Positions 45,255 through 64,000 of a stretch of DNA of 64,000 nt are shown piece after piece. The notes under the pieces were generated by a model. It was not told the DNA's origin, ran no database searches, and was given only the letters and a program-made list of their open reading frames with translations. The translations under genes were made by a program, and so were the position numbers. Source of the DNA: a virus (lineage: Duplodnaviria; Heunggongvirae; Uroviricota; Caudoviricetes); IMG/VR virus record IMGVR_UViG_2718218135_000001, positions 1 to 64,000 of that record, one strand, 5' to 3'. Position 1 is the first letter of the stretch. Every line of letters begins with the position of its first letter.

Positions 45255-45263
45255 GGATTTGCC

Positions 45264-45726: not shown

Positions 45727-46368
45727 ATGACTGTAGAAAAAGACGAGAGCAAAACTCGCCTGACACCAGCTGAGTGGGCAGAAGCCGAAGCGAAATGGAC
45801 TTCTGGCGAATACACACTCTCCAGGCTGGAGGAAGAGTACGGCATTCGTCGTGAAACGCTCTCCAGACATTTCAAAAAGCGTGGATTAGAGAAAGGCGCG
45901 GACTCCGTTGGGAAGATGGTGCGCGAGTCGCTCAAATCCGACGCAGAGCTGCGTGCGAAGGCGCGTGCAGAGAAAATCGAAGAGCGCCGGACTCGTTACG
46001 ACGATTGGGCGTTCGCACTCGGTCGTATGGTGATGCATGAGGTGGCCATAGCCAAGAAGGACGGCAGGCCACTGGCAGCCATCGAAGATGACCTGAAGAG
46101 TCTCCAGCGTGCCAGCGGCACACTTGCTAAGTGCTTCGAAATATCGTCGAAAGCGCTCGGTATGGATCGCGTGGAGAACGAGGACGACGAAATCCCGAAC
46201 CTGGTATTTGGCGAACTTACGCCTTCCCAGGTGGCGCAGCTGCGTAAGGAAGATGATGAGCCGGATCTGATTGATGACGATCTGCTTGAGTCACTCGAAG
46301 AGGAAGCACTGAGCGAAGCTGAGGGCGATTCTGAAGCGTCTGGTGATGAAAGTGATGGGAGCGTCTGA
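45727..46368 (+). CDS. terminase small subunit (putative)
   Basis: Position immediately before TerL; HTH-like N-terminus, acidic C-terminus; two AAACAA-N-TTGTTT motifs upstream. Confidence 0.5.
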   Translation: MTVEKDESKTRLTPAEWAEAEAKWTSGEYTLSRLEEEYGIRRETLSRHFKKRGLEKGADSVGKMVRESLKSDAELRAKARAEKIEERRTRYDDWAFALGRMVMHEVAIAKKDGRPLAAIEDDLKSLQRASGTLAKCFEISSKALGMDRVENEDDEIPNLVFGELTPSQVAQLRKEDDEPDLIDDDLLESLEEEALSEAEGDSEASGDESDGSV

Positions 46369-46370
46369 CT

Positions 46371-47627
46371 ATGGCCATCCCGTCGTCTCTGAGTCTCGTA
46401 CAGCTGCATTCTGGGCAGATGCAAGTCTTCCAGTCGCCACATCGTTTCAAAGTGGTGTGTGCGGGTCGACGCTGGGGTAAATCCCGGTTGTCGATCTCCA
46501 CCATCATCCGCGCGGCAGCCAAAGAGAAGAAGCAACGTGTCTGGTATGTCGCACCGACTTACCAGATGGCTCGCCAGATCTTGTGGGATGACCTGCAGGA
46601 AGTTCTGCCGCGCAAATGGGTTCGTAAGAAAAACGACACCACGATGACCATCGTGCTGAAGAACGGCTCTGAAATCGCGCTGAAAGGTGCGGATAAGCCC
46701 GATACGCTTCGTGGTGTGGCACTGCACTTTGTGGTGCTCGATGAATTTCAGGATATGAAGCCTGACACCTGGTACAAGGTACTGCGTCCGACACTGTCCT
46801 CCACCCGTGGCGGTGCGCTGATCATCGGTACGCCAAAAGGCTTCTCCGAGTTCCACAAGCTGTGGACTATCGGTCAGAACAAAGATTTGCAACGCAAGGG
46901 GCAGTGGAAGAGCTGGCAGTTCGTTACGGCCGATTCTCCGTTCGTACCGAGCGCGGAAATCGAAGCAGCGAAGAACGATATGGACCCTAAATCGTTCGCA
47001 CAGGAATACCTGGCCAGCTTCGAAAACATGTCCGGACGCGTTTACTACCCGTTCGACCGCAATGTGCATGTGAAGCCACTCCAGTTCAATCCGAAACTGC
47101 CGATCTGGGTTGGTCAGGACTTCAACATCGACCCTATGTCATCGGTCATCCTGCAACCGCAGCCAAATGGTGAACTGTGGGCTGTGGACGAATTGGTGTT
47201 GTTCTCTTCTAACACGGCTGAAGTGTGTGACGAGCTGGAGCGTCGATACTGGCGCTGGAAATCTCAGGTCACTATCTTTCCTGACCCGGCAGGTGCGTAT
47301 CGCCAGCACGCACGCGGCGAATCTGACGTCGACATCTTCAAAGAGAAAGGTTTCCTTCGAGTCGATTATCCGAAGAAGCACCCGCCGATCGCAGACCGTG
47401 TTAACGCAGTGAACCGCATGTTGATGAGTGCCTCGGGCGAAACCCGGTTGTACATCGATCCGAAGTGCAAACACCTCATCGACTCGCTGGAGAAGGTGAT
47501 CTACAAGCCAGGCTCACGCGATATGGATAAGACTGGCGGCATCGAACACAGTGCGGATGCGTTGGGTTATCCGGTTCATCGTAGGTATCCGGTGAAAAAT
47601 CGTGTTATTCTTGGTGGATCTAGATAG
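46371..47627 (+). CDS. terminase large subunit
   Basis: Walker A VVCAGRRWGKS, Walker B HFVVLDEFQDM, C-terminal RNaseH-like acidic motifs (GQDFNID, VDEL, FPDPAG). Confidence 0.75.
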   Translation: MAIPSSLSLVQLHSGQMQVFQSPHRFKVVCAGRRWGKSRLSISTIIRAAAKEKKQRVWYVAPTYQMARQILWDDLQEVLPRKWVRKKNDTTMTIVLKNGSEIALKGADKPDTLRGVALHFVVLDEFQDMKPDTWYKVLRPTLSSTRGGALIIGTPKGFSEFHKLWTIGQNKDLQRKGQWKSWQFVTADSPFVPSAEIEAAKNDMDPKSFAQEYLASFENMSGRVYYPFDRNVHVKPLQFNPKLPIWVGQDFNIDPMSSVILQPQPNGELWAVDELVLFSSNTAEVCDELERRYWRWKSQVTIFPDPAGAYRQHARGESDVDIFKEKGFLRVDYPKKHPPIADRVNAVNRMLMSASGETRLYIDPKCKHLIDSLEKVIYKPGSRDMDKTGGIEHSADALGYPVHRRYPVKNRVILGGSR

Positions 47628-47642
47628 GTAAGTACTTACCTA
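47625..47642. promoter_or_regulatory. Perfect 18 bp palindrome TAGGTAAGTACTTACCTA between terL and the portal gene
   Basis: Exact palindrome directly after the terL stop, 19 bp before the portal ATG. Confidence 0.5.
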
Positions 47643-47660
47643 AGCGGAAAGGAAAATCAA

Positions 47661-49235
47661 ATGGAATTGACTGACAAGCAAATCAAAGACCTTGTGGCAC
47701 GACGCCACCCTGAATATGAGAAGAAAAAAGAACATTGGGACTTCCTCGCCAGCACCTACGCTGGCGGGCGTGCCTGGTTCAACGACAATATCTTCCGTTA
47801 CTTCAAAGAGGGCGATCAGGAGTTCAAAGAGCGCCTGGAACGCGCTTATCGCTTCAACCATACGCGCGAAGTGGTAAACCTCATCAACAAATACCTCTTC
47901 AAAGAGGTCATTCACCGCAACACTGATGAAGCACCGGAGCAGATCCGCAATTTCTGGAAGCGAGCCACGCGCCAGAACGCCTCCATCGATGCGTTTATGG
48001 CGGCTATCGATCTGCAATCATCCATTTATGGCCGTATCTGGGTTGTCGTGGATAGCACGATGAACGTCGATGTTGAGTCTGTTGCAGACGAGAAGAAAAA
48101 TGATGCGCGTGCCTACGCTTACTGGATTTCGCCGCAGCAGCTGCTTGATGTTGCCTGGGATGAAGACGGCAATATGTTGTGGGCGCTGATTGTTGAAATC
48201 GCGCGCGACGACGAAGATCCGTTCACTTCAACCGGGCAGGAATACCAGCGTTACCGTCTGTGGACGCAAAACGAGTGGTATCTGTTCCGTGAAGAAGTGA
48301 AGAAGGGTTCCGGAAATAGCGGTCGCCGTCAGGCCAAAGTCGTTCTGGAGGATAGCGGCCAGCATAATCTGGGCGTGGTGCCGGTGTTCCCGGTGGATTG
48401 CATTGGTGAAAGCGAGTCTCCGTATTTTAGCCCGTCGTTGATTGACGATATTGCCTATCTTGATCGCGCCGTGGCCAACTACCTGTCGAACCTTGACGCG
48501 ATTATTCAGGATCAGACATTCAGCCAGTTAGCGATTCCGGTTCAGTCCCTGCTGCCGGGCGATGAAAACCACACCAAAGTGCTCGAAATGGGGACAAAAC
48601 GTGTCTTCACCTTCGATTCTGAGAGCGGTAATCAGCCATTCTATCTGTCTCCAGACCCGAAACAGGCTCAGATGATCATCACCACGATTAAGACGGTGAT
48701 TAATGAGATCTACCATTCCGTTGGTGTGGCTGGTGAGCGAACCAAGCAGGATAACGCGCAGGGTATCGACAACTCTTCGGGGGCAGCGAAGATGTACGAC
48801 TTCCAACGTATTAACAGTCTGCTGGTGACAAAAGCAGAGCGCCTCGAAAGGGCAGAACGCCAAATGATGGAGTTGGCTGCGAAATGGATGGGCATCGAAT
48901 TGGATGAAGACCACTCTCTGATCGCTTACCCGGAGAGTTTCGATATTCGTGGTCTGACTGACGAATTTGCCGTCGCTGAGAAATTGTCGCTGTTACAGGC
49001 GCCTGATTCTGTACGTCGTCATCAGATGGAAATGCTCATAGAAAAGATCTTCCCGAATATTTCCGAAGCGATGCAAAAGGAATTTAAAAAAGATCTCTTG
49101 AAATTTCCTCTAAAAAATGCTCCTGATGCCCTTGAAAATAAGTTAGTACTTACTTATGATCGCGATACAGTCCAAGGAAGCGGACAAGATCAACCCCGAG
49201 GGAATGGGGACTCATCTACTCAAGAGACCGAGTGA
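47661..49235 (+). CDS. portal protein (putative)
   Basis: 524 aa ORF directly after TerL, no NTPase motifs; assignment by position and size. Confidence 0.55.
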   Translation: MELTDKQIKDLVARRHPEYEKKKEHWDFLASTYAGGRAWFNDNIFRYFKEGDQEFKERLERAYRFNHTREVVNLINKYLFKEVIHRNTDEAPEQIRNFWKRATRQNASIDAFMAAIDLQSSIYGRIWVVVDSTMNVDVESVADEKKNDARAYAYWISPQQLLDVAWDEDGNMLWALIVEIARDDEDPFTSTGQEYQRYRLWTQNEWYLFREEVKKGSGNSGRRQAKVVLEDSGQHNLGVVPVFPVDCIGESESPYFSPSLIDDIAYLDRAVANYLSNLDAIIQDQTFSQLAIPVQSLLPGDENHTKVLEMGTKRVFTFDSESGNQPFYLSPDPKQAQMIITTIKTVINEIYHSVGVAGERTKQDNAQGIDNSSGAAKMYDFQRINSLLVTKAERLERAERQMMELAAKWMGIELDEDHSLIAYPESFDIRGLTDEFAVAEKLSLLQAPDSVRRHQMEMLIEKIFPNISEAMQKEFKKDLLKFPLKNAPDALENKLVLTYDRDTVQGSGQDQPRGNGDSSTQETE

Positions 49236-49257
49236 TAAGTAACGAAAAGGTATTTCT

Positions 49258-50154
49258 ATGAATCTGTGGCAAATGCTTATGGCCCGTCGTGGCCTGATGG
49301 ATGTAGCCGAAGCGCATGAGCGCGGCGGCGCTGGTGGCGGTGCTCCTGCTGGAGACAATGAGCAGAGCATTCAAGACCCAGGCAAACAGGGCGAGCAAAA
49401 AGAGCAACCGAAGGGTGACGACGACGAGTATGCCGGTATGACTCAGGAAGAGTTGCTGGCAGAACTGCGTAAGTCTAAGAAAGCCGGTGCTGATCTGTTG
49501 AAAGAGAATATGAAGCGCAAGGAGAAAGAGCGCACATTGGCCGATCAGCTGGCTCAGTACGGTGATATTGACCCGACGCGTGCTCGTCAGCTTCTCGAAG
49601 CTGAACAAGCCGCAGAAACCGCACGTCGGGAGGCGGAGCAGGCTGAACTGGAACGTCGTGGTGAGTTCGATGCTGTGAAAAAGCAGATGATCGAAGCACA
49701 CCAGACTGAACTGGCACAGCGCGACGAACGCTACGCCGCTCTGGAGAGCGAGAACGCCGCACTGAAGGCTCAACTGGTCGAAATGACTGTTGGTGTTTCC
49801 TTCAGCAGTTCTGCTTTCCTGCGTGACAAAGTTCTGATGACTCCGGCTAAGGCACGCGTTATCTACGGCTCTCATTTCGAAGTGGGTGAAGACGGTAGTG
49901 TTGTGGGCTTTGATAAGCCAGCCGGTCAGAAAGAACGTGCAGTTCTGGTTGACGGTGAAGGCAAGCCGTTACCGTTCGAATCCGCGATTGAGCGCATTCT
50001 GCGTGCAGATCCGGAAGCTGACGCACTGTTGCGTAGCGAAGCCAAGCAGGGTGCTGGTTCCAATAGCAAACCGCCCCACAAAGTAAGCCAGCCGAAGAGC
50101 AAGTCGACTATGGATAAGTTGACCTCCGGTCTGGGAAAAATCGGACTCAAGTAA
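49258..50154 (+). CDS. scaffolding protein (putative)
   Basis: Charged, coiled-coil-rich 298 aa protein between portal and capsid genes. Confidence 0.5.
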   Translation: MNLWQMLMARRGLMDVAEAHERGGAGGGAPAGDNEQSIQDPGKQGEQKEQPKGDDDEYAGMTQEELLAELRKSKKAGADLLKENMKRKEKERTLADQLAQYGDIDPTRARQLLEAEQAAETARREAEQAELERRGEFDAVKKQMIEAHQTELAQRDERYAALESENAALKAQLVEMTVGVSFSSSAFLRDKVLMTPAKARVIYGSHFEVGEDGSVVGFDKPAGQKERAVLVDGEGKPLPFESAIERILRADPEADALLRSEAKQGAGSNSKPPHKVSQPKSKSTMDKLTSGLGKIGLK

Positions 50155-50180
50155 CATCTTAAATCATAGGGAAATGAAAG

Positions 50181-51056
50181 ATGCCATTACTGCGTGATGA
50201 AGCTGAAAAGCTGTCTAATAACGAACTTGAGCAGGGTGTGATCGAGACCATCATCGATCGCGATGATCTGTTCGCTATTCTGCCTTTCATGAAGATTAAT
50301 TCTAAGGCATACCTTTACAACCGCGAAGCTACCCTGAGCGAAGCTACCTTCATTGATGTGAACGACACCATCACTGAAGGCGCAGCAACCTTCAGCGAAC
50401 ACGTTGCGAAGCTACGTATCCTGGCAGGCGACGTAGACGTCGACAAATTCCTGGCGACCACTATGTCCGACACCAACAACCAGCTGGCAATCCAGGTTCG
50501 TCAGAAGGTGAAAGGTCTGGCTCGCGCATTCCGCCGCAACCTGATTCTGGGCGACTCCAGCACCAACACCAAAGCGTTCGACGGTATTCCGAAACTGATG
50601 CACGACGATCAGAAGATCGACATCGAAGGCGCTTCCATGACCTTCTCCATGTTCGACGAACTGGTCGACGCGGTGAAAGATCTGGGTGCGGACTGCATCA
50701 TGATGCGCTCCGAGCATCTGCGTGCTTATCGCGCTCTGCTGCGTACCGTTAATATCGGCCCGTCCGAAATTATGATGGAAAACTTCGGTCGACCGATGTT
50801 GTGCCACAACGGTGTACCTTTCATCGTGAACGACTTCATCCCGACTGACGCGGGCAAAGCAAGCATCTATTGTCTGCACCTGTCCGAAGAGAACGGTGTG
50901 ACCGGTCTGTATGGCGGTGAAAACGCTGGTATCGTTGTTGAGAACATCGGTACTGTTCAGAACAAAGACGCAACCCGTACCCGCGTTAAGTGGTACTGCT
51001 CTCTGGCGAACAAGCACGACAAAGCTATCGCCGCGCTGACCAATGTAAAAATTTGA
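50181..51056 (+). CDS. major capsid protein (putative)
   Basis: 291 aa ORF after the scaffold gene, followed by a strong terminator; position-based. Confidence 0.5.
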   Translation: MPLLRDEAEKLSNNELEQGVIETIIDRDDLFAILPFMKINSKAYLYNREATLSEATFIDVNDTITEGAATFSEHVAKLRILAGDVDVDKFLATTMSDTNNQLAIQVRQKVKGLARAFRRNLILGDSSTNTKAFDGIPKLMHDDQKIDIEGASMTFSMFDELVDAVKDLGADCIMMRSEHLRAYRALLRTVNIGPSEIMMENFGRPMLCHNGVPFIVNDFIPTDAGKASIYCLHLSEENGVTGLYGGENAGIVVENIGTVQNKDATRTRVKWYCSLANKHDKAIAALTNVKI

Positions 51057-51091
51057 TCAGAATACTAGGTAAGTAGTTATCTACTTAATAT

Positions 51092-51118
51092 GGGTGGGCT
51101 ATACGCCCACCTTTTTTG
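51092..51118 (+). terminator. rho-independent terminator
   Basis: ggtgggc-tatac-gcccacc followed by TTTTTT. Confidence 0.7.
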
Positions 51119-51130
51119 TAGGAGCGATAA

Positions 51131-51559
51131 ATGCCAGAACAAAAGATGAAAATCATGGAGGAGACGTTTGCGGATTTCACAGGGCATATGTGCCGTGCCG
51201 GATTCACCAACTCCGTCTCCAACGAGCCTCTGAGCGAGCGCCAGCAGAACCATCTTGCGGCTTGCTTCCGGACAGTTCCGTTCACGCAGTCTGTCAGCGT
51301 GGAGTCTGTTGCTCTGACTCCTGATTCTGTCTCTGTTGAGAAGGGGAAGTCAGTCAAATTGCGAGTTGATGTGCAACCGTCAAACGCAACCAATCAAAAA
51401 GTCACCTGGACTTCTCAAAATAGCGACAAAGCGACCGTGGATCAGAACGGTAACGTAGTTGGCGTAGCCGTTGGTACGGCAACCATTGAAGTGGCTTCAC
51501 ATGATGGCAGTCACAAAGCGACTGCGACCGTTGAAGTGACCGCAGCACCGGCTGCGTAA
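51131..51559 (+). CDS. Ig-like (Big_2-type) domain protein, probable head decoration protein
   Basis: C-terminal VKLRVDVQPSNATNQKVTWTSQNSDKATVDQNGNVVGVAVGTATIEVAS, typical bacterial Ig-like group 2 pattern. Confidence 0.55.
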   Translation: MPEQKMKIMEETFADFTGHMCRAGFTNSVSNEPLSERQQNHLAACFRTVPFTQSVSVESVALTPDSVSVEKGKSVKLRVDVQPSNATNQKVTWTSQNSDKATVDQNGNVVGVAVGTATIEVASHDGSHKATATVEVTAAPAA

Positions 51560-51590
51560 CCAACATATGGGCAGCATAGCTGTCCATTAA

Positions 51591-52037
51591 GTGAGAAGAA
51601 AAATGAAACCAGCAAAAATTCGTTTATTGGAGCCTCAATTTTTGGGGTACACGGGGATTCTCTGCGGTATCAAGTTTGTAGACGGTATCTCAGTTGCTGA
51701 ACTGCCATTCGTCGATCAGCAGCGGATTTGTGCTTCCATGCGTGCGACTACCGTTGAAGGTAAAAATGTATCTCCTTCTGCCGCGTACAGTAGCCGCAAT
51801 AACTTGACTGCGGAAGACATTGTCGAGACGCCAGCCCCGGATATTGTGCCAATGAAACGTGGTGCGGCTGAAACAAAGCCCAAACCGGTACAGCGCTTTA
51901 CTCGTGAAGAACTGGAGTCGATTGCGGACTGTGAAGGTATTGCGGGTCTTCGTCAGATCGGCAACCAAATTGGCGTGAAAGCCAAAGGCATCGTTGAAAT
52001 GATCGAGGGTATCCTGAAAGCACAGGGCGGTGAGTAA
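51591..52037 (+). CDS. virion structural protein (hypothetical)
   Basis: 148 aa ORF in the head module. Confidence 0.4.
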   Translation: MRRKMKPAKIRLLEPQFLGYTGILCGIKFVDGISVAELPFVDQQRICASMRATTVEGKNVSPSAAYSSRNNLTAEDIVETPAPDIVPMKRGAAETKPKPVQRFTREELESIADCEGIAGLRQIGNQIGVKAKGIVEMIEGILKAQGGE

Positions 52038-52870
52038 TGGCACAGATCGACACGTACCGTAGCGGGGAAGCCGTTTCCCTGTCGTTTGCATTTAACGTTC
52101 TGGATATTGAGTCGGCAACGTATACCGTCAGAGATGGCGCGGGTTCGATCATCGTTGATAACGAACCTCTCGATATTACTGAGGGGCAGATGTCCATTCC
52201 GGTTGTCGTGTCGGCCGAACACAACCTGCTTGCCGACAAAGAGCGCGATCTGCGTTACGTCCTCGTCAAAGCGGTGGCATCCGGTCTGACGCATGAAGAG
52301 CGCAAGATGTACGTTCTGCTAAATAGCTTCGAGCTGTCTATCCCAGGCCAGTCATTCGCAACGGTCGCAGACGCCCAGATGCAAGCCATCGACATGCTGA
52401 ACGGCGACACTCTGTTGGCTGATGGTGACGGGCTGATGCGCAAACGTCTCATTGAGGCCACCAGACGCGTCAAAACGCTGCCGTTTTCAATCCGCAAAGT
52501 CCTTCGTATCGATTTCGATCGGTACGACCGTCCACAAAACATGCTGAACGTATATGACGTACCGTGGGGTGCTGACGGGGCATATCGTCACGATCTGATT
52601 GATTGGGAGAAGATGACGCAGGATAAATTCGACGAATTCCCTGACTACTTCAAACAGACATTAATGCTGGCCGTGGTTAATGAAGCCTGCGAAATCGCTA
52701 ACGGCAATGACGTAGCGGCAGCTCGCGAGGACGGCATCCTGTCTGAATCCATTGGTGAAACGACAAATATGTACCGCACCGGCAAAGCGGCAAATTTACA
52801 TGTGGCTCGCAGTACCTGGAGACTGCTGGTCAGCTACATCAACAACCGCATGATTGTTCGCCGTGCGTAA
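52037..52870 (+). CDS. virion structural protein (hypothetical)
   Basis: 277 aa ORF, ATGA-coupled to the upstream gene. Confidence 0.45.
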   Translation: MAQIDTYRSGEAVSLSFAFNVLDIESATYTVRDGAGSIIVDNEPLDITEGQMSIPVVVSAEHNLLADKERDLRYVLVKAVASGLTHEERKMYVLLNSFELSIPGQSFATVADAQMQAIDMLNGDTLLADGDGLMRKRLIEATRRVKTLPFSIRKVLRIDFDRYDRPQNMLNVYDVPWGADGAYRHDLIDWEKMTQDKFDEFPDYFKQTLMLAVVNEACEIANGNDVAAAREDGILSESIGETTNMYRTGKAANLHVARSTWRLLVSYINNRMIVRRA

Positions 52871-52967
52871 CGCCAGTCGCATTATTTACTTCTGGTCGAA
52901 AGGCTCAAGACGCACAATCGCGCCTTCGCCTGGTAATGCGTGCGGATGCCAACCACAGGGAGAGTGC

Positions 52968-53312
52968 ATGAACATTTCATGGCAAGCAGAGATGGCGATT
53001 TACCGTCTGGGTTCGAAGAATGTCTACGGTGAAGCGCAATTGCAGTTCGTCAGGAAGACGAACGTCGGTGTCGTTAAGTTTGAACAAAGTAATGAGAAGT
53101 CATCGGTACGTGCGGACAGCTCCGGCAGTCGCGGAAAAGCCAATATGGAATTGTTCGATGTCGTTCTGGTGGTCCCACTTGAGGCCGCAGTGCAACTTGA
53201 TGACGTTCTTATTCTGGAGGGGCTAAAGCTGAAGGTATCCAGTGTGCATCGTCGTTGGGGGTTACGTGGACGCCCTGGTCATCTGGAAGTAGGGGCAAAC
53301 ATATGGGCCTGA
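52968..53312 (+). CDS. head-tail joining protein (hypothetical)
   Basis: Internal ATG of ORF 52854..53312 with RBS agggagag. Confidence 0.4.
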   Translation: MNISWQAEMAIYRLGSKNVYGEAQLQFVRKTNVGVVKFEQSNEKSSVRADSSGSRGKANMELFDVVLVVPLEAAVQLDDVLILEGLKLKVSSVHRRWGLRGRPGHLEVGANIWA

Positions 53313-53776
53313 AGTATGACTCGCATCAGTTTAAGCGTGCTGGCGACAGACTCAATAACAGCCAGAAAGCCTTTAAGCGTTATCTCATTCGTGACATGGA
53401 GAAGCTGGCGCGTCTGGTTGAGCGTCTGGCGCGGGCAATGGCTCCGCTGGAGACTGGCTCACTCGAAAGCGCGATTTTCGCGAGAGTTGTCAAAGAGGGC
53501 TATACGGGGCTGCGTATTGAGTTATCGGTGTCTGGGGCTAAACCGCGCGAAGGGAACCCTGGTGTTGAGGTTGGCGATTATGCGGAGTACATGGAGTTGG
53601 GCAAGTATCGTCTCGGCTATCTCTCCCGCATGAAGAGCGTCACCAACCCGCCAGTTGCTGGTGTGAAGCCACGCGTTGGGCCTTTGTTCCTTGAAAGAGC
53701 GGCACAGGTCAGTGAGAAACAGTTCGCTCAGACGATAGCTGAAGCAGCAAGGAAAGCAGGTTTTACGAGAGGTTGA
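53303..53776 (+). CDS. head-tail joining protein (hypothetical)
   Basis: Internal ATG of ORF 53255..53776, overlapping the upstream stop. Confidence 0.4.
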   Translation: MGLKYDSHQFKRAGDRLNNSQKAFKRYLIRDMEKLARLVERLARAMAPLETGSLESAIFARVVKEGYTGLRIELSVSGAKPREGNPGVEVGDYAEYMELGKYRLGYLSRMKSVTNPPVAGVKPRVGPLFLERAAQVSEKQFAQTIAEAARKAGFTRG

Positions 53777-53777
53777 T

Positions 53778-54161
53778 GTGTTTATTGAAGCATTTGCGAG
53801 CCTGATGCAGAAGGCGAAGATCGGCACACTCGGCACTGACATTTTCTGTCACTACATGCCAGCCAATGTGAAGTCCGGCATCCTGTTGGTTACTCCCAAT
53901 ACGGGGATCGCCATTGACCATGAGTTAAAAGGTTTTTATCACGACTCTTTTACCGTCATCGTGCGTAATGCGACGATCACAAAGGCGGTGGCGAAAGCCA
54001 ATAAGATCATGGACATGTTTCCGGTCGAGGAAACCGTGTCAGATGGCGTTTACTTCCGGTTGGTACGACCAATGTCGATGCCGATAACTTATCCAAAAAA
54101 CGAAGGCTCGTTGATTGAAGCGGGCATCCCGATTGAATTTGCGGGCTATTTGTTGAATTAA
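53778..54161 (+). CDS. tail-completion/terminator-like protein (hypothetical)
   Basis: 127 aa ORF immediately before the major tail gene; GTG start. Confidence 0.35.
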   Translation: MFIEAFASLMQKAKIGTLGTDIFCHYMPANVKSGILLVTPNTGIAIDHELKGFYHDSFTVIVRNATITKAVAKANKIMDMFPVEETVSDGVYFRLVRPMSMPITYPKNEGSLIEAGIPIEFAGYLLN

Positions 54162-54235
54162 CAAAATAAGTAAATATATACTTACTATTGGCGCCATGAA
54201 GGTGCTGATTTAACGGAAAAAGGAGTTTTCCAACA

Positions 54236-54982: not shown

Positions 54983-54998
54983 TCGTGACGTGACTAAG

Positions 54999-55026: not shown

Positions 55027-55041
55027 AAAGGATTTTAACCA

Positions 55042-55359: not shown

Positions 55360-55709
55360 TTTCCCGCGATGAATCCGGGGTAAAGACCGTATCGATAGAT
55401 CTCGGATTCTATTTCAGTCGTGTAGTTGCTCACTACGCCGTGTCGCCATTAGAGCTGCTGGGCGTCCCTCTAACGATGTTCTGGATGCTCAGTCGCAACA
55501 TCGACCGTCTACGTGCGGAAGAGGATGTCCGCAACCTGCAAGTCGCTCGCGCTGCCCAGGCAGATGGCGAGGGCGTGAAGGCGTTCATGGAGGGTTTGCA
55601 ACTCAGGATTGGAAGACCAGTCGTAACCGATAAAGTCTACGATCCGCGCAAGGATAAGGCAGACCCTGACGCCAAAGAGCAACTGATGCAAATTTTTGGC
55701 AGAGGATGA
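55347..55709 (+). CDS. tail assembly chaperone extension (lambda T-like), probably made as a G-T fusion by -1 frameshift
   Basis: -1 frame is open from 55347 across the G stop to 55709, overlapping the tape-measure start; no canonical slippery heptamer identified. Confidence 0.4.
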   Translation, partial: RGKVISRDESGVKTVSIDLGFYFSRVVAHYAVSPLELLGVPLTMFWMLSRNIDRLRAEEDVRNLQVARAAQADGEGVKAFMEGLQLRIGRPVVTDKVYDPRKDKADPDAKEQLMQIFGRG

Positions 55710-55716
55710 CAAGGGA

Positions 55717-58700
55717 ATGTCACAAAACGTAGAGTTTGTCCTGTCGCTGGAAGACAAGCAGTTTACAGCGTCAATCGACCGGGCGGGTAAGCTACTTACC
55801 AGATTCGGGGAGCAGGCCACAAAACCAGCTCAGAAAATTAACAATCTGGAACGCTCGTTGGGTTCGGTCTCCCGCATCATCGGCGTTCTGGAGTCCAAGC
55901 TCGATGCCACGGCAGACAAACTACAGGATGTAGCTGCCGGCTTCGAACTTGTGTCTGATGTTTCGCGCAAGACGCGAGGCAACATTACCAGCCTCAATTC
56001 AGGTCTCAAAACCCTGATTGAGCGCGTCGACACAACCACCTCTTCCGTTAATAAGCTCACCACATCGTTGCGCAAGGTTCAGTCTGAACTCAATGAGTTT
56101 TCCGATTGGGCAACGTTCGCTGGTAAGAGCGCCAGCCGCTTCGGTACGGAGGTAAAAGAAGCCTCTACATCTGTGAGTGGTATGAATACGCGCCTTAACA
56201 CCACGACGAAGCGTCTCAGTAATTGGGGTGTCACAACGAACCAGGCTGCCGAGGGGCTGAAGAAAGTCCGCGATCAGATGGATGCGGTGATTGGCCGCCA
56301 GCAGCTGATCAGCAAGCCGGTGCGTGTGCGCACCAGCGGCTACGGTGAGGGCGGTGGTAATGGCGGTGGCGGTCGACACAGCGGTTCCTATGGCCACGGC
56401 GGGCGCGGTGCTGAAAATGGCGTGTTCTCTGGTCTGCGCGGCAATATTTTCCTGCTGGGCGAGATTGGTGATGCGGCAAGAACGGTAACTGACATCCTGT
56501 TCGGCTGGCAGAAGCCAATCGTCGAAGCTGCCTCCAAAATGGAGCGTATGTGCGTCATGTTGCGCGGGCTGAACAAGGACAAGGCCAACCCTGGCAAAGC
56601 AGCCGCAGAGGATATGCAGTACATCGTGGATATGGCGCAAAACGCCCCGTTTGCGATGCAGGCGCTGACCGATTCCTTCGTTAAATTCCGCTCGGCAGGT
56701 CTCGATCCTACTGACGGATCGCTGAAAGCATTGGTGGACTCTGTTGCACGCTTCGGCGGCGATAGTGAACTGCTAAAACGCGCAGCAGTGGCCGTCCAGC
56801 AGATGTCCGGTAAGGGCGTCGTTTCGATGGAAGAACTGCGTCAGCAATTAGGTGAAGCCGTTCCTAACGCGATGAAAGCGATGGCAGACGCTGCCGGCAT
56901 TACTATGGGGGAACTGACCAAAGCAGTCTCCAGCGGTACTGTGGAAGCGAAACAGGCGTTATCGCTGATGTTCGTTGGTCTGCGTGCAGAGAACGAAAAC
57001 GCCGCCAAAGACATGATGCAAACCTACACCGGTGCGCTGGCGCAACTACAAACCTCCTTTACGTTGTTCGCCGATCGTGTCGGTCAGACGGGCTATCTGG
57101 ATTCTCTCTCTAAGGGAATGAAAGAACTAGCCTCCATCATGAATAGCGCAGAAGGGATTTCGTTTGCTAATTCTTTAGGTTCGGGGTTAACGACGGCAAT
57201 CGATGGGTTGCGTCAGCTTGCTCAATGGTTAGCAAAGAACCAAGAGCTGGTAATTAATCTTGGTAAGGTCGTGGCCGCGATGGTTGCGTTCAAACTGATG
57301 CGAGCAGGGATCATGGGGGTAGTTGGCGCTGGGAGCCAGATGGTTAGCACCTTTGCCACGATGGCGACCGCCATACAGACTCCATTTAACCTCGGCGCTA
57401 CAGCAGTAACTCGATTCAATCGTGCGGCACGTATGGGGCTGGCTCCGATCCCCTCTCTTATTTTCGCCATCCGTGGGGCGATTACGGGGCTTAAAGGCGC
57501 TTTTGCTGGATTAACGGCGTTCATTGCAGCAAATCCAATTGGCGCTGCGTTTACCGTGGCAACCGTGGCCGTGGCCGGGTTGATCACGTATATGACCATG
57601 CTTCGCAGCGAAACGTCAAAAGTCGTTGACGAGATTAGGAAAATACCAGAGGCGATGACGGCGGCCAAACGTGCACAAATGGCGGAGTATAAAGCGCGTC
57701 TTGAGCAACAAATCACGCAAAAGGAACAAGAGTTAAAATCTGGCGAAAAGGTGGTTTATGGGCCGGGTATGGCCGGAACTGCAGTAAAGATTAATCAGGA
57801 TGAACGTAAGCGTATAGAAAATGAGCTAAATGACCTTCGTGAGAAACGCGATAAAACTACTGGGGCAATTGAACGCGGAGACACTGCTGTAGCCAAACGT
57901 CTTGCAAAAGATGCGGCAGAATCACAGATAGAGAAAATACGGGAAGAGAATAGAGACTTTGCGGCAACATTCGCTAAAGCTCGTCAAGAGGCTCTGGAGA
58001 AGATCCAAAAAATCAATGATGACGATTCACTTTCTGATGACGAAAAGAACAAACTATTGGCACCGTTACGTGAAACGGTAAACAAAAGCTATCTGGAGCC
58101 TGCGCAAAAACTGGTTGATTCACTTTCTTCTCGTAAGAATGCGACCGAGAAGCAAATCGCGACTCTTAATGATCAGCTTGAAAAAGCCAAAAAAGATGGC
58201 AATACCGAGCAGATCCAGAAACTGCAAGGCAGTATTCGTGGTTATCAGGAGCATTTGGAAGCCGTTGCTCAGGAGCTGACTCAGGCAGAGTTCGAGAGAG
58301 ATAATGCGGCCAAAACTGGTAAGGGCGTAATGTCAAACCAGGGGACTGTTCTTGGGTTAGGTACAACTGATAAAGCTGCTCAGAAGGCGCTGGCGCAATA
58401 TATGCGAAACCAGATGGATTCTGCGACTTATCAGCGTACTTTGCCTGACGGCACTCCGATGATGGACTTCGAAGGTAAGCCGATTATTGGGCCTAAACAA
58501 CTCAAGACGCAGCTTAATTTGCAGAAAGCATCCAGTGCCAGCTCTCTGGAGAAAATGAGCGATGCGGAACGCGCCGCAGCCATTGCAGCGCTGACCAAAG
58601 CGCGCGAACAGGATGCCGCAGCAGCGGAAAAAGCCGGGCGACGTACAGCCAATGCTTCTCAGCGTGCGGCCAAGAAAGAACAGGCAGCGCAACAGAAACT

Positions 58701-60288
58701 GGCGGCCGGATATCAGAAGGCTCTGGATAAAGCCGATCAGCTTATGGGGCAAATGGGTGAAAGCTCTAAGGCTACGGTATCGTTTGATCAGTCTCTTCGC
58801 GATACAACGAAATCGCTGACTGATTTGGCTAATGCGGTTCCTAACGAGTTCATCACTCAAGAGATGATCGACAAGGCGAAAAAACGTCTTGAAGACCTTA
58901 AAAATGCGACACCTGAATATCGCGAGATGTTTAATCGCCGCAATGTTGAGCAGATGATCTCCACTTGGGCACCGGAGGCGGATTCCATTATTAGTGCTGG
59001 CTATACGCCGTCTCGCGAAGAGAAAGTTGCTGATTTCGAAGACACCTACAACCGCAATCTCAAAGCGTTGATAGAACTTCGTGATAAGGCGTCTGATCCT
59101 AAAGTTGTGGCGCTTTATACAAAGAAAATCAATCAACTGATTGCTGCTGGCAATACCGCGCTTATTAAAGAGACGGGGACTGCGACGCAGAAGTTGGCAC
59201 TGGAATACGAAAACCTGGCAGAGCAGATCGAAAGCACCTGGACTGATTTGTTTAGTGGCTTAACTGATGTTCTGACTGATTTCGTTATTAACGGGAAGAT
59301 GAGCTTCTCCAGCCTGTCCCAGTCCATTTTGAAAGATATCACCAATATGGTCGTGAAGTCGCAGATCACGCTGCCTCTAATGAACATGTTGGGGATGGGA
59401 ACCACCGCAGTTGGTAGTTCACAGAGTGGTAATTTGCTCACCGGGGTTGCTTCCGCAGTTGCCAATCAAGGTGTGCGCATAAGCAACACTGTTAATGGCG
59501 ACAAGTCGGTAGGAGAAGCCACGAAGGAGACGTCCAGTTCGGTAACTGGATTGGGGCAAACGACACAGCAGACCACCAGCGCAATTGGCACAGCAACAAA
59601 TGCGATTGGTAGCTGGGTATCAGGGCTATTTGATAGCACCGAAGCCAAAGATGCTGAGACAAAAGCAGTGAAGGATTCCATCTTCTCGATGCAGAACCTC
59701 AGCTCTGTTACCGGTGCTCTGTCTGCCGCGTTCGCAATGCTTGGAGCTAATGCTTCCGGCTCTGGTAATAAGTGGTTGAATTTCGGCGCGACAGTTGCAT
59801 CTGGGTTGGTTTCAGTATGGGCAGGTGGTGGTTTCGACAGCGCGACATCAAACTCTGCTAAAACCGCAACCAGCAGTGTGGCTGACGGAACTAAAGGCAT
59901 TCCTGCAATCCCGAAGTTTGCAAATGGAGGAATATTCGGAAAAGACGGCGTGATCCCGCTCCGGGCATACCAGAAAGGCGGTATTGCTAACTCGCCTCAA
60001 TTAGCGTTGTTTGGGGAAGGTTCTATGAATGAGGCGTATGTTCCATTGCCTGATGGTCGAACAATCCCTGTAACGCTCAGTACCGATGGTATGAGTGGAG
60101 GAGGAAATGTTCTTTCTCCGGTATCAATTGAGATCAACGTCCATAGTGACGGTAGCACAACTGAATCCGGCGATACAGAAAGCATATGGAACAATGCCGC
60201 TCAACGGATGAAAGCAATCGCGCTTGAGACTATCGCTCAAGAGAAACGCCCTGGCGGATCACTCAACCCAAACACTCAACGTAACTAA
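55717..60288 (+). CDS. tail tape measure protein
   Basis: About 1520 aa, coiled-coil/alpha-rich with glycine-rich and TM-like central segments; first ATG with RBS aaggga (track start 55696 is TTG). Confidence 0.8.
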   Translation: MSQNVEFVLSLEDKQFTASIDRAGKLLTRFGEQATKPAQKINNLERSLGSVSRIIGVLESKLDATADKLQDVAAGFELVSDVSRKTRGNITSLNSGLKTLIERVDTTTSSVNKLTTSLRKVQSELNEFSDWATFAGKSASRFGTEVKEASTSVSGMNTRLNTTTKRLSNWGVTTNQAAEGLKKVRDQMDAVIGRQQLISKPVRVRTSGYGEGGGNGGGGRHSGSYGHGGRGAENGVFSGLRGNIFLLGEIGDAARTVTDILFGWQKPIVEAASKMERMCVMLRGLNKDKANPGKAAAEDMQYIVDMAQNAPFAMQALTDSFVKFRSAGLDPTDGSLKALVDSVARFGGDSELLKRAAVAVQQMSGKGVVSMEELRQQLGEAVPNAMKAMADAAGITMGELTKAVSSGTVEAKQALSLMFVGLRAENENAAKDMMQTYTGALAQLQTSFTLFADRVGQTGYLDSLSKGMKELASIMNSAEGISFANSLGSGLTTAIDGLRQLAQWLAKNQELVINLGKVVAAMVAFKLMRAGIMGVVGAGSQMVSTFATMATAIQTPFNLGATAVTRFNRAARMGLAPIPSLIFAIRGAITGLKGAFAGLTAFIAANPIGAAFTVATVAVAGLITYMTMLRSETSKVVDEIRKIPEAMTAAKRAQMAEYKARLEQQITQKEQELKSGEKVVYGPGMAGTAVKINQDERKRIENELNDLREKRDKTTGAIERGDTAVAKRLAKDAAESQIEKIREENRDFAATFAKARQEALEKIQKINDDDSLSDDEKNKLLAPLRETVNKSYLEPAQKLVDSLSSRKNATEKQIATLNDQLEKAKKDGNTEQIQKLQGSIRGYQEHLEAVAQELTQAEFERDNAAKTGKGVMSNQGTVLGLGTTDKAAQKALAQYMRNQMDSATYQRTLPDGTPMMDFEGKPIIGPKQLKTQLNLQKASSASSLEKMSDAERAAAIAALTKAREQDAAAAEKAGRRTANASQRAAKKEQAAQQKLAAGYQKALDKADQLMGQMGESSKATVSFDQSLRDTTKSLTDLANAVPNEFITQEMIDKAKKRLEDLKNATPEYREMFNRRNVEQMISTWAPEADSIISAGYTPSREEKVADFEDTYNRNLKALIELRDKASDPKVVALYTKKINQLIAAGNTALIKETGTATQKLALEYENLAEQIESTWTDLFSGLTDVLTDFVINGKMSFSSLSQSILKDITNMVVKSQITLPLMNMLGMGTTAVGSSQSGNLLTGVASAVANQGVRISNTVNGDKSVGEATKETSSSVTGLGQTTQQTTSAIGTATNAIGSWVSGLFDSTEAKDAETKAVKDSIFSMQNLSSVTGALSAAFAMLGANASGSGNKWLNFGATVASGLVSVWAGGGFDSATSNSAKTATSSVADGTKGIPAIPKFANGGIFGKDGVIPLRAYQKGGIANSPQLALFGEGSMNEAYVPLPDGRTIPVTLSTDGMSGGGNVLSPVSIEINVHSDGSTTESGDTESIWNNAAQRMKAIALETIAQEKRPGGSLNPNTQRN

Positions 60289-60330
60289 CTATCGACTGCC
60301 CCGACCGGGGCAGTCTCACAAGGATGTGAG

Positions 60331-60666
60331 ATGGAAAGACAAACGTTTAATTGGTATCCAGATTACGAATCTGAAAAAAGCGTAAAACCGAATGTAACGG
60401 TACTTAATTTTGGTGATGACTACGAGCAGCGACAGGCTCAAGGTCTTAATCGTATTAAAGAAGAATGGTCGTTAACCTTTACCAGATCATACAACGAAAT
60501 TAATGCAATCGATGACTTCCTGACTGAGCGATCAGGCGTTGAATCGTTCTATTGGGTTAATCCAAGAGGCAAGCAGATTGTAGTTGTATGTGACAGTCAT
60601 ACGGTCAAGCGATATCAGGGGTACTGTGTCTTAACTGCTACATTCAGACAAGTATTTGAGGCTTAA
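60331..60666 (+). CDS. minor tail protein (lambda gpM-like)
   Basis: 111 aa, co-linear with lambda M by recalled sequence (FGDDYEQRQAQGLN...). Confidence 0.6.
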   Translation: MERQTFNWYPDYESEKSVKPNVTVLNFGDDYEQRQAQGLNRIKEEWSLTFTRSYNEINAIDDFLTERSGVESFYWVNPRGKQIVVVCDSHTVKRYQGYCVLTATFRQVFEA

Positions 60667-60748
60667 GTATCTGGATAAGTAAGTACTAATTTACTATCAT
60701 TGTGGCGCTGACAGGATGTTGGCGCCTTTTTATTTCAAGGAAGAAACA

Positions 60749-61450
60749 ATGGGTATTAAAGCTGATATTCAGAGCTTGTCGCCCTCCGCGCTCATTGAAC
60801 TGTTCGAACTTGATATGTCGAACACCACCTCTGGAGGCAAGCTATATTTCCACGCTGGTACAAACGAGCTGATGGAGCCGGTTGTTTGGCAAGGCGTGTC
60901 CTACGAACCGTGGCCAATCAAAGCGTCAGGCTTTGATAAGACTGGTCAGGGTACTTTGCCTCGTCCAAAAATCCAGGTCTCCAACTTTGCCGGAACTGTC
61001 TCCGCTGAAGTTCAGGCAAACGACGATCTGGTAGGTTGCCGCATCATCCGCAAGATGACACTGGCGCGTTTTCTCGACGAGGCCAACTTCAAAGACGGTA
61101 ATCCAACCGCAGATCCAAATCAGCACTTCCCGGATGAGATGTGGTTCATCGAACAGAAGACTCTCGAAACCCATGAGGTCGTCGAGTTTGAGCTGTCGAG
61201 TGTGTTCGATCTGATGGGCGTGCAGCTGCCGTACCGCCAGATCATCAAAAACACCTGCCCGTGGAAATACCGCGGCCCAGAGTGCGGCTACACCGGCCCA
61301 TATTTCGACAAAAACAACCAGCAAACCACCATGTCTGGCGCGGATTACTGCACGAAACGCTACGACTCATGCAACGCACGGCGCAACTACTTTGCCAATG
61401 GCGTAATCCACTTTGGCGGGTTCATTGGGGCAACGCGTTATGGGCAATAG
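60749..61450 (+). CDS. minor tail protein (lambda gpL-like)
   Basis: Matches recalled lambda L blocks: VVWQGVSYEPWPIKASGF, RIIRKMTLARFLD, CPWKYRGPECGY, FGGF. Confidence 0.75.
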   Translation: MGIKADIQSLSPSALIELFELDMSNTTSGGKLYFHAGTNELMEPVVWQGVSYEPWPIKASGFDKTGQGTLPRPKIQVSNFAGTVSAEVQANDDLVGCRIIRKMTLARFLDEANFKDGNPTADPNQHFPDEMWFIEQKTLETHEVVEFELSSVFDLMGVQLPYRQIIKNTCPWKYRGPECGYTGPYFDKNNQQTTMSGADYCTKRYDSCNARRNYFANGVIHFGGFIGATRYGQ

Positions 61451-62237
61451 AGTATTCCCGGAGCTTGGTTCGGACGTTATGCAGGAAATCTATCTGACAG
61501 CCATTAAACGTTACCCGAACGAAGCGTGTGGCTTTCTGGTGCGTACCACTGGCGAGAAATATCGCTTCATTGAAGCCCGGAACGTGTCGGAGCACCCGGA
61601 AAACACGTTTGTTATGCACGCTGACGACATTATCACTGCGGAAGATGCGGGAGACGTGGTTGCCATCTGGCACTCCCATACTGACGAATCTGCTGATGCG
61701 TCAGACGCCGACCGCGCCGGATGTGAGGCAACGGAAGTTCCGTGGCTGATTCTGGCTGTTCGCAAGAACATCGAGGGCGATGCGCCATTTCACTTCAGTG
61801 AAATGAATGTGATCACCCCAGACGGCTTTGAGATGCCTTATCTGGGCCGACCCTATGTGTTCGGCGTCTTCGACTGCTGGATGCTTTGTCGCGACTATCT
61901 GAAACGAGAGTTTGGTGTCGAGCTGAACCCGAATGCGCATCTGCATATTCCGTTATGGTACACGGGTGATGATGACATTCTCGACCATAACTATCGAAAT
62001 GAAGGGCTTGTGCGTCTTGCGCCAGGGACGGAGCCGCAGCGCGGCGATGTCTTCTTCATCCAGTACGGGAAAATGCCTGATCACTGCGCGGTGTATATCG
62101 GAGACGGCATGATCCTGCATCACCAAATCGACCGCCTGAGTTGTCGCGCTTATTACGGCGGCATGTACCAGAAACATACGACGCACCATCTGCGTCACAG
62201 AGACTTACTCAAGGGTGATGAAAAGTGTCTGAGTTAG
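61440..62237 (+). CDS. tail assembly protein (lambda gpK-like; JAMM/MPN + NlpC/P60 domains)
   Basis: JAMM-like AIWHSHTDESADASDAD and NlpC/P60-like Cys/His (FDCWMLCRDY...HCAVYIGDGMILHH); start overlaps the L stop (alternative ATG 61479). Confidence 0.7.
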   Translation: MGNRVFPELGSDVMQEIYLTAIKRYPNEACGFLVRTTGEKYRFIEARNVSEHPENTFVMHADDIITAEDAGDVVAIWHSHTDESADASDADRAGCEATEVPWLILAVRKNIEGDAPFHFSEMNVITPDGFEMPYLGRPYVFGVFDCWMLCRDYLKREFGVELNPNAHLHIPLWYTGDDDILDHNYRNEGLVRLAPGTEPQRGDVFFIQYGKMPDHCAVYIGDGMILHHQIDRLSCRAYYGGMYQKHTTHHLRHRDLLKGDEKCLS

Positions 62238-62818
62238 TTCATGTGCAACTTGGCGGCCCTATGGCCAAACATTTTGGTCGTCACTGGCATTTGAAAGTTC
62301 GCAACACCAAGCAGGCTCTGGATTTGATTGAGGCTAATCGCCCCGGATTCAAAGCCTGGATGAAGCGAAATCTCAAAACCTACGACAAATACCACATCCA
62401 GATCACCAATAAACAGGGCTACAAGTGGTCTGTGGACGAGAGTGAATATCAGATGATGGGGCAGTCTGACAACATAGCCAAAATCCGCATTACCCCTGTT
62501 CCGCGAGGAAGCGGCGGTTCTGCTTTTGGGTGGTTTCAGACGGTAGTAGGAGCCGCTTTGTTGGTTGTATCGGCGGTAATGATGCCTGCTTTAGCACCTC
62601 TCGGTTTGTCACTGATGATGGGCGGTATAGCGCAAATCATATCTCCGCAAGCCACTAACGAAAGTGTAAGACAGGCAGATAACTCCGACTCGTTCTATTT
62701 CGACGGCCCTCAAAATACAGAAAACCAGGGCAACCCAGTACAACTTATCTATGGCGAGGAAATTCTGGTTGGCTCACAGGTTGTGAGTTCTTCAATCACG
62801 ATTGACCAGCTAATGTAA
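62225..62818 (+). CDS. tail assembly protein (lambda gpI-like)
   Basis: C-terminal hydrophobic glycine-rich segment and LIYGEEILVGSQVVSS, resembling lambda I. Confidence 0.65.
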   Translation: MSELVHVQLGGPMAKHFGRHWHLKVRNTKQALDLIEANRPGFKAWMKRNLKTYDKYHIQITNKQGYKWSVDESEYQMMGQSDNIAKIRITPVPRGSGGSAFGWFQTVVGAALLVVSAVMMPALAPLGLSLMMGGIAQIISPQATNESVRQADNSDSFYFDGPQNTENQGNPVQLIYGEEILVGSQVVSSSITIDQLM

Positions 62819-62836
62819 ACAAGGATTTTTTGAACA

Positions 62837-64000
62837 TGGAACAGTTCAAGAAGAAAAAGTTACCGCTGTTTATTGCCGGTGCGGGTGGTAAAAAAAGTAG
62901 CAAAAGCTCCAGCCGTACACCGGTTGAAGCCGACGATACCGTAAATTCTCGTGCAATGGCCGCTATCCTCGATCTTCTTGGGGAAGGGGTAATTGGCGGC
63001 TTAGTAAATGGCGCAAGATCTATTTTTATCGACGATCTGCCGATTGTAAATGAAGACGGTTCCTCCAACTTCAGCGGAATCACATGGGATTTTCGCGACG
63101 GTTCACAAGACCAGACTCCAATGTCTGGCTTTGATTTCGTTGAAACGCCTAAATCCGTCAATATCCAGTTAAAAAAAACGCATTATGTAACGGTTTCAAT
63201 CGATAACGATGAAGCTGATCGGGTTCGTGTCATCATGAAGTTTCCTTCTTTGCGAAGCATAGATAAAAAAACTGGTGACACGAACGGTACGACTGTTGAG
63301 TACAAGTTCCAGATAGCAAATGGCGACTCAACATTTGTAGATGTGGTCGCGGAAGGTGAAAAAAGCGTTGGCATTAAGCTAACAGCAAAGAAGACCGGCG
63401 TTTATTACCGTAGCTATGAGCTGAAGCTGCCTAAGCCTGGACGAGCATACAAGGTTCGTGTAGTCCGTATTACCGATGATAACAGTAGCCAGTATCTCTA
63501 TAACGATACATGGGTGGATTCAATCGGGGAAATTGTCGATACACCGATGAACTATCCAAACTCTGTTTTGGTTGGATTGAAGGTAAACTCTGAGCAATTC
63601 GGCAGCACCATGCCATCTCGCTCTTATCTGGTGCGTGGCCTAAAAATTCGAGTACCTTCAAACTATAACGAGTCCAGTAACACTTACGCTGGGGTATGGG
63701 ATGGCACTTTTAAGCTGTTGTCTTCTTCGAACCCCGCGTGGATTCTCTTTGATTTGCTGACCAATGCTCGATATGGCCTTGGTCAGTATGTGTCGGAATC
63801 TATGATTGACCTTGGCCAGTTGTACCAGATTGGTCGATATTGTGACGAAGAGGTCGATGATGGCTTTGGTGGCAAAGAGAAACGCTTTGCAATCAATACG
63901 CAGATCACCAGTCGACAGGACGCATACCGGCTAATTCAGGATATTGCTGGAGCATTCCGCGGCATGGTGTTTTGGGCTGGTGGGATGGTTAACATCATGC
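62837..64000 (+). CDS. host-specificity/central tail fibre protein (lambda gpJ-like), N-terminal part only
   Basis: Open to the window edge (absent from the ORF track); blocks LVGLKVNSEQFGS...LVRGLKIRVPSNYN...YAGVWDGTFK...CDEEVDDGFGG are co-linear with lambda J. Confidence 0.75.

Follow-up and report, generated by a model that had tools for sequence, protein, structure and literature searches.

Where lambda-type tail-tip genes stand beside head and packaging genes of another kind, the question is when, and between which partners, the virion region was recombined. We addressed it in a window of 64,000 nucleotides (nt), positions 1 to 64,000 of the Caudoviricetes record IMGVR_UViG_2718218135_000001 in IMG/VR, in which a single co-oriented, unbroken virion operon runs on the plus strand from the small terminase gene (TerS) to a gpJ-type gene (45727-64000). 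A first-pass annotation had described the M, L, K, I, and J homologues of this operon as lambda-like and its head genes as not and had proposed modular recombination within the virion region. The element is a known SSU5-supergroup phage-plasmid of Escherichia coli, and 45727-64000 is its conserved structural-gene array, encoding a large-headed siphovirus. The recombination that can be demonstrated here took place between two lineages of this one family rather than across the divide between lambda-like and other phages. We consider it very probable that the module has a history in two layers, with an ancient, family-wide pairing of head and tip overlaid by recent exchange of alleles within the family.

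Identity of the element

The SSU5 supergroup comprises the groups SSU5_pHCM2, pMT1, pKpn, and pSLy3, and Pfeifer et al. (2021, PMC7969092) describe the terminase, capsid, and tail genes of the SSU5 family as a persistent "phage-array." In the window, terminase, capsid, and tail genes are likewise co-localized and collinear with those of the family. Salmonella phage SSU5 is collinear over the whole 18.3-kb module (99% coverage and 90.9% nt identity by megablast), the Escherichia phage-plasmids Cyrano, CMS-2020a, and PhiR41_1 are collinear at 84-86% nt, and Klebsiella phage-plasmids match it at about 79% nt. Gene by gene, the amino acid (aa) identity to SSU5 is 85-100%, with the exception of a variable immunoglobulin (Ig)-like protein. 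The nonstructural backbone is collinear as well: of the 45.7 kb of window 1-45726, 34.3 kb align with SSU5 57.6-103.3 kb in the same order (69-97% nt).

The plasmid collection contains 795 records that match the module, 577 with a query coverage of at least 80%, and the hosts of the matching plasmids are Klebsiella, Escherichia, Enterobacter, Yersinia, Salmonella, and Citrobacter. The top match is the E. coli plasmid CP099103 (98.5% identity and 100% coverage), which is typed as IncFIB and nonmobilizable in PLSDB. Nothing in the element is new in kind: the family has been described, 98.5%-identical plasmids have been deposited, and the lambda-like tail genes are in the literature, Pfeifer et al. 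having noted that lambdoid siphoviruses have tail genes similar to those of the SSU5 family (PMC7969092).

Lambda-like tip genes and the search for a donor

The split between tip and head genes seen by the first-pass annotation is borne out by BLASTP and Pfam, and its coordinates and protein sizes (a 418-aa terminase and a 291-aa capsid) are correct. Against lambda, BLASTP aligned M at 31% identity (E = 6e-16), L at 40% (5e-52), K at 34% (2e-22), I at 29% (4e-18), and the N-terminal part of J at 38% (6e-77). The five genes stand in lambda order directly after the tape measure gene (60331-64000), and M, L, K, and J score above the Pfam gathering score. Four C-terminal cysteines of gpL (in NTC, PEC, DYC, and DSC of the window protein) align with lambda L, in which the conserved C-terminal cysteines are ligands of an Fe-S cluster.

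For the head and packaging genes, BLASTP found no match between the large terminase (TerL) and gpA, the portal and gpB, the capsid and gpE, or the tail terminator and gpU (E values of 0.26-34), and BLASTP and tblastn detected no similarity to the lambda set gpNu1/gpA, gpB, gpC/Nu3, gpD, and gpE; "non-lambda" refers here to a different sequence family, as tailed-phage terminases and HK97-fold capsids are all related at the fold level. The similarity of the tail tube protein to lambda gpV is confined to its C-terminal Big_2 Ig domain, a promiscuous domain, and the tape measure gives a marginal C-terminal motif match to gpH (E = 0.05).

To look for relatives of both parts, we searched 50,697 phage records by tblastn. 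The records exceeding 60% identity for capsid, portal, L, and J were the same 12 SSU5-like records. The expectation that head and tail-tip proteins would lead to different nearest relatives thus fails at this shallow depth, both leading to SSU5-like phage-plasmids that are collinear over 18.3 kb. L and the N-terminal part of J had no match at 60-80% identity in this collection, and the best matches outside the family (about 51% for L and about 43% for J) were both in Ralstonia prophages. A recent lambdoid donor of the tip is therefore ruled out among these records, and there is no sign of a recent lambdoid graft.

A lambda-like tip cassette might still have been grafted recently, in this element or its immediate ancestors, onto an unrelated head and packaging set. 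In favor of such a graft, M to J match lambda at 28-40% aa and the head genes do not, and few phage records have the portal (44) while many have L and J (about 1,750). We nevertheless regard it as very unlikely. The identical arrangement is found in SSU5, Cyrano, Klebsiella phage-plasmids, Yersinia pestis pMT1-type plasmids, and the 795 plasmid records; the pairing of head and tip recurs in the distant phages ANB28, JGB6, RHph_N1_10, and B1VFA (discussed below); the closest tips outside the family are as remote as the L and J searches indicate; and apart from the intrafamily allele switch described next, the nearest neighbor is continuous across the junction between the tape measure and M.

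Recent recombination within the family

To locate the intrafamily exchanges, we measured sliding-window identity to five family members and scored 3,314 sites of a five-way alignment that discriminate SSU5 from Cyrano. These informative sites split the module into four clean blocks. Segment A (45732-57135), from TerS to about codon 480 of the tape measure gene, is of the SSU5/pHCM2/pMT1 type at 1,766 of 1,923 sites, with 93-100% nt identity to SSU5 and 71-93% (mostly 75-87%) to Cyrano. In segment B (57144-60703), which holds the C-terminal two thirds of the tape measure and M, the informative sites change to the type of E. coli pLF82, Cyrano, and PhiR41_1, and nt identity is 90-100% to Cyrano and PhiR41_1 and 70-86% to SSU5. 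Segment C (60721-62389), consisting of L, K, and the first 55-60 codons of I, is again of the SSU5 type (234 of 260 sites; 92-98% nt to SSU5 and 79-89% to Cyrano), and segment D (62410-63994), with the rest of I and the N-terminal part of J, is of the Cyrano type (309 of 318 sites; 96-100% nt to Cyrano and 77-81% to SSU5).

The breakpoints thus fall in the middle of the tape measure gene (57135/57144), in the intergenic gap between M and L, and in the middle of I (62389/62410). In the two split genes, the N-terminal part of the tape measure is 98% identical at the aa level to that of SSU5 versus 88% for Cyrano, and its C-terminal part is 84% versus 95%; the corresponding values are 98% versus 93% for the N-terminal part of I and 87% versus 96% for its C-terminal part. 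M is 86% identical to SSU5 and 98% to Cyrano, and the N-terminal part of J is 90.5% and 100% identical, respectively. Segment B also holds three SSU5-type patches of about 30-100 nt (57522-57621, 58316-58346, and 58596-58659), which look like gene-conversion tracts or more complex parentage.

Exchange appears to continue among the closest relatives. CP099103 is 98-100% identical to the window at the nt level except at 62527-63726, where identity drops to 79-89%. Near-identical plasmids thus continue to exchange J alleles, and the drop points to another very recent replacement of the allele comprising J and the C-terminal part of I.

The same profile could in principle arise without any recombination, if the module were inherited vertically as one unit and its uneven similarity to SSU5 reflected faster evolution of the tail genes. 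Gene order is invariant across the family, and tail and host range genes generally evolve faster than head genes. Differences in rate, however, cannot produce a reciprocal switch with sharp boundaries, in which 70-86% identity to SSU5 coincides with 90-100% to Cyrano and the reverse, and rate variation is excluded on this ground. Nor do they explain why L and K, lying between divergent blocks, return to 92-98% nt identity to SSU5 or why CP099103 departs from the window in a single stretch. Purely vertical descent is thus highly improbable. A chimeric assembly of two SSU5-like plasmids co-resident in the sequenced sample has next to no probability as the source of the mosaic. Two related phage-plasmids in one host could co-assemble, and the breakpoints do fall in regions of shared homology. 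However, 33 independent plasmid records, many of them closed and complete and drawn from various hosts and countries, match the 18.3-kb module at at least 95% identity (11 at at least 99%), which excludes an assembly artifact, and CP099103 has the same block pattern over segments A to C.

On this reading, the element is a hybrid of two lineages of the SSU5 supergroup, formed most simply by homologous recombination between co-resident or co-infecting family members.

An older pairing of head and tip

The head genes have relatives well outside the family. Siphoviruses of 105-122 kb share them, namely, Pseudomonas phage nickie (Nickievirus) and its relatives, Xanthomonas phage JGB6, Stenotrophomonas phages ANB28 and BUCTxx99, and the Rhizobium phages RHph/RHEph10 and B1VFA; capsid and portal are 41-54% identical to theirs at the aa level. 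We compared the window gene by gene, using tblastn, with fetched loci of nickie, ANB28, JGB6, RHph_N1_10, and B1VFA. The block from TerS to the end of the tape measure gene is common to these five phages (24-62% aa), although in individual phages several of the neck and chaperone genes had no match. TerL, portal, scaffold, and capsid reach 39-62%, and TerS only 28-34%.

Just upstream of TerS, window 40486-45530 encodes a DEAD-box helicase (minus strand), two ParB_N proteins, an ABC-type ATPase, and a 299-aa protein. These genes are syntenic in the same five phages at 33-58% aa, and the ancient block therefore exceeds the virion genes; the resulting likeness to a nickie/RHEph10-like backbone, with its syntenic TerS-to-tape-measure block and upstream helicase, ParB, and ATPase genes, is homology of a module and not membership in a genus. 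In the same tblastn comparison, lambda, Dina, HK97, and T1 had only M to J in common with the window. Since the five phages share TerS to tape measure and these four only the tip, the deep boundary lies at the junction between tape measure and M (60288/60331). From the helicase, ParB, and ATPase genes through the tape measure, the region is one ancient block held in common with siphoviruses of Pseudomonas, Xanthomonas, Stenotrophomonas, and Rhizobium, and M-L-K-I-J is a ubiquitous lambda-type tip cassette found with many head types.

The tape measure itself belongs with the head side of this boundary. Nickie, ANB28, and JGB6 have matches to its N-terminal part (aa about 250-610) and its C-terminal end (aa about 1340-1530), and tblastn gave no match to the tape measures of lambda, Dina, HK97, or T1. 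We therefore rejected the idea that the tape measure C terminus had moved with the lambda-type tip at depth. The generic Tape_meas_lam_C motif of Pfam is present in the tape measures of both the window and nickie.

Four of the distant phages (ANB28, JGB6, RHph_N1_10, and B1VFA) also carry M-L-K-I-J after the tape measure, at 26-45% aa (33-45% for L and 37-40% for J), where the JGB6 identities come from partial high-scoring segment pairs. With tblastn, I had no match in B1VFA, and one or more tip genes were unmatched in the frameshifted JGB6. The pairing of head and lambda-type tip accordingly reaches well beyond the SSU5 family: the entire SSU5 supergroup inherited it, it is probably older still, and it is no peculiarity of this element. 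A non-lambda ancestral tip, which the lack of BLAST matches for nickie M, L, and K might have suggested, was rejected given the M-L-K-I-J sets of these four phages and the gpJ and NlpC domains of nickie itself. Nickie retains a diverged NlpC peptidase and a gpJ-type protein, and its M, L, and K are beyond detection by BLAST.

Two peculiarities of the reference genomes were seen along the way. In nickie (22625-26557), a stretch at 23027-23206, near the 5' end of the J open reading frame (ORF), matches aa 130-184 of the window I protein, and a separate I gene is not annotated, which suggests an I-J fusion or a misannotation. In JGB6, the capsid, terminase, tape measure, and J genes are split into several short coding sequences, a pattern typical of uncorrected frameshift sequencing errors.

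Trees were built separately for head (TerL, portal, and capsid) and tip (L, K, and J) by neighbor joining (NJ), with bootstraps and 8-12 taxa. The head tree separates the SSU5 group from nickie, ANB28, and the Rhizobium phages with 100% support. In the tip tree, the head-sharing phages are not monophyletic: ANB28 groups with Dina (84%) within a cluster of ANB28, Dina, HHU4, HK97, and T1 (89%), RHph and B1VFA group with lambda (71%), and the branch leading to the SSU5 group is long and has no settled place. Such incongruence between trees is a classic mark of ancient modular exchange, in which tip cassettes pass among siphoviruses with different heads. Modular recombination in the virion region, as first proposed, thus holds in its weakest, textbook form at depth, where the head and tip phylogenies disagree; it does not hold as a recent join of lambda-like and non-lambda parts, and nothing at the head-tip junction points to a recent event.

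Host association of the exchanged alleles

The alleles of head and tip differ in their distributions over host genera. The head allele of the window (47661-51056) is found at at least 95% identity in 241 plasmids, from Enterobacter, Salmonella, Citrobacter, Y. pestis, and, in a minority of cases, E. coli, the Y. pestis pMT1-type allele being 95% identical to that of the window. Most E. coli plasmids, pLF82 included, carry a head allele at about 84.5%, and Klebsiella plasmids one at 83%. The allele of the I C-terminal part and J (62410-64000) occurs at at least 95% in 95 plasmids, all from E. coli among the matches listed, and its counterparts in Enterobacter, Yersinia, Salmonella, and Citrobacter plasmids are 77-80% identical. 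We infer that a virion module of the SSU5/pHCM2/pMT1 type acquired tail parts of an E. coli lineage by homologous recombination.

J is the host specificity protein in lambda-type tips, which makes a host range rationale for the J swap plausible. An E. coli-type J allele, together with partners that fit it, would adapt an SSU5-type virion to E. coli hosts, and shuffling of tape measure/M and I/J alleles in correlation with host genus is a plausible route of host range change. The recent exchange moved two units that each include part of a split gene, the C-terminal part of the tape measure with M and the C-terminal part of I with J, and left L, K, and the N-terminal part of I in place. Speculatively, the exchanged pairs could be co-adapted interaction units of the tip, or an SSU5 backbone could have jumped into E. 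coli by way of a resident J allele; we hold this to be possible but doubtful. If true, the co-adapted pairs would give a natural map of the tip contacts that tolerate mixing. SSU5-type elements often carry resistance genes. Beyond correct annotation, the significance of the mosaic is small.

Several points weigh against the two-layer history as proposed here. Homologous recombination is deduced from the block pattern, and the labels "SSU5-type" and "Cyrano-type" rest on two reference genomes, so that the true parents may be other members of the family. The host range rationale is likewise indirect, the window containing the first 388 codons of J and not its receptor-binding C terminus. For the ancient layer, the NJ trees are crude and have long branches, give the tip of the SSU5 group no firm position, and show neither the direction of the ancient exchanges nor how many there were.

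Gene content of the virion operon

Protein families were assigned with Pfam and PHROGs; all genes lie on the plus strand. The operon opens with a 213-aa DNA-binding protein (45727-46368; phrog_867, E = 1e-105; 99% aa to SSU5). A Pfam search with this protein gave no match; the syntenic gene of Cyrano is annotated "Terminase small subunit," and the protein is the probable TerS. The 418-aa TerL follows (46371-47627; Pfam Terminase_6N and Terminase_3; phrog_2 and phrog_10250) and is 57-62% identical at the aa level to those of nickie, RHph_N1_10, ANB28, and JGB6. Next come a 524-aa portal (47661-49235; phrog_145, E = 1e-139), a 298-aa head scaffold (49258-50154; phrog_206 and Pfam DUF6651), and the 291-aa major capsid protein (50181-51056; phrog_212, E = 1e-107), which has weak Pfam matches to SrpI-like, GP7, and SU10_MCP and 41-54% aa identity to the capsids of nickie, JGB6, ANB28, and the Rhizobium phages.

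The Ig-like virion protein (51131-51559; Pfam Big_2, E = 5e-25) is a short allele of 142 aa, found also in pJN2-26 and CP099103; SSU5 and Cyrano have alleles of about 300 aa. No other gene of the head region varies as much, the protein being 51-65% identical at the aa level to those of SSU5, Cyrano, and pJN2-26. Four head completion and neck genes follow (51591-53776; phrog_916, phrog_912, and phrog_911; 92-96% aa to SSU5), at 51591-52037, 52037-52870 (Ad1 adaptor), 52854-53312 (Hc1 head closure), and 53255-53776 (Ne1 neck), whose roles are those annotated for their syntenic counterparts in Cyrano and whose start codons are uncertain.

The tail genes begin with the tail terminator (53778-54161; Phage_tail_terminator_6 [PF12691], E = 5e-21) and the major tail tube protein (54236-54982), in which Pfam places a C-terminal Big_2 domain at aa 164-242 and whose N-terminal part is 42-52% identical at the aa level to those of nickie, ANB28, and the Rhizobium phages. 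By its position between tube protein and tape measure, 55042-55709 encodes a G/T-like pair of tail assembly chaperones, presumed to be linked by a -1 frameshift. The G-like ORF spans 55042-55359 and the T-like -1 frame is open at 55347-55709, giving an overlap of only 12 nt, in which a scan for a canonical XXXYYYZ slippery heptamer found none. The sole candidate slip site in window 55340-55445 is GGGGCAAAG (GCA AAG to GGC AAA).

The tape measure (55696-60288; Pfam TMP_3 and Tape_meas_lam_C) has about 1,525-1,530 aa. Cyrano, which is pLF82 of E. coli LF82, is reported to form siphovirus particles whose heads measure about 76 nm and whose tails measure about 259 nm (PMC9928086), in keeping with its 1,525-aa tape measure. 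The tip genes encode gpM-type (60331-60666; Phage_min_tail, E = 3e-35) and gpL-type (60716-61450; Phage_tail_L, E = 4e-96; 99% aa to SSU5) tail tip proteins, a gpK-type protein with Prok-JAB (JAB/MPN) and NLPC_P60 domains (61413-62237), a gpI-type tail assembly protein (62225-62818), which is recognized by its match to lambda I and had no match in a Pfam search, and the N-terminal 388 codons of a gpJ-type central tail fiber or host specificity protein (62836-64000; FNIII-A_GpJ, E = 1e-30), whose ORF runs past the window end at 64000.

Outside the operon, the nrdA- and nrdB-like ribonucleotide reductase genes of SSU5 (about 3.5 kb; SSU5 67886-71364) are absent at window 13378-13402, where the flanks are collinear. 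Window 1-3730, 21011-22508, 28833-30150, and 38715-40211, each 1.3 kb or longer, are missing from the SSU5 arm 55000-103299 and are presumably accessory cargo.

Comparison with known systems

Within the family, SSU5 differs from the window in its alleles of the tape measure C-terminal part with M and of the I C-terminal part with J, which are 14-30% divergent at the nt level, in the length of its Ig-like allele, and in having nrdAB. Cyrano and PhiR41_1 have the same architecture and are 90-100% identical in segments B and D, whereas the head, neck, tube, tape measure N-terminal part, and L-K of Cyrano are 71-93% (mostly 75-89%) identical to those of the window.

The nickie-type phages resemble the window in the synteny helicase-ParB-ParB-ATPase-TerS-TerL-portal-scaffold-capsid-neck-tube-tape measure, and all but nickie have a recognizable M-L-K-I-J. 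Their tips are nevertheless no closer to that of the window than those of lambda and Dina (33-45% versus 40-50% for L) and do not cluster with it in the NJ trees. Of the nonfamily tips in the phage collection, the nearest are those of Ralstonia phage Dina and related Ralstonia prophages (L, 50%; K, 37%; I, 32%; J, 43%). Dina is, however, a 39-kb integrating phage with an HK97-type head and protease and with a different terminase and portal, and nothing upstream of its M matches the window by tblastn.

Lambda has the same five tip genes in the same order after the tape measure, with M, L, K, and J in the same Pfam families at 28-40% aa. It differs in its terminase (gpA versus the Terminase_6N type), in a portal, capsid, terminator, and tube N-terminal domain that are unlike at the family level, in having a C/Nu3/D system where the window has a scaffold, and in its tape measure, that of the window being nearly twice as long. 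"Lambda-like" here thus names a ubiquitous tip cassette and not a donor.

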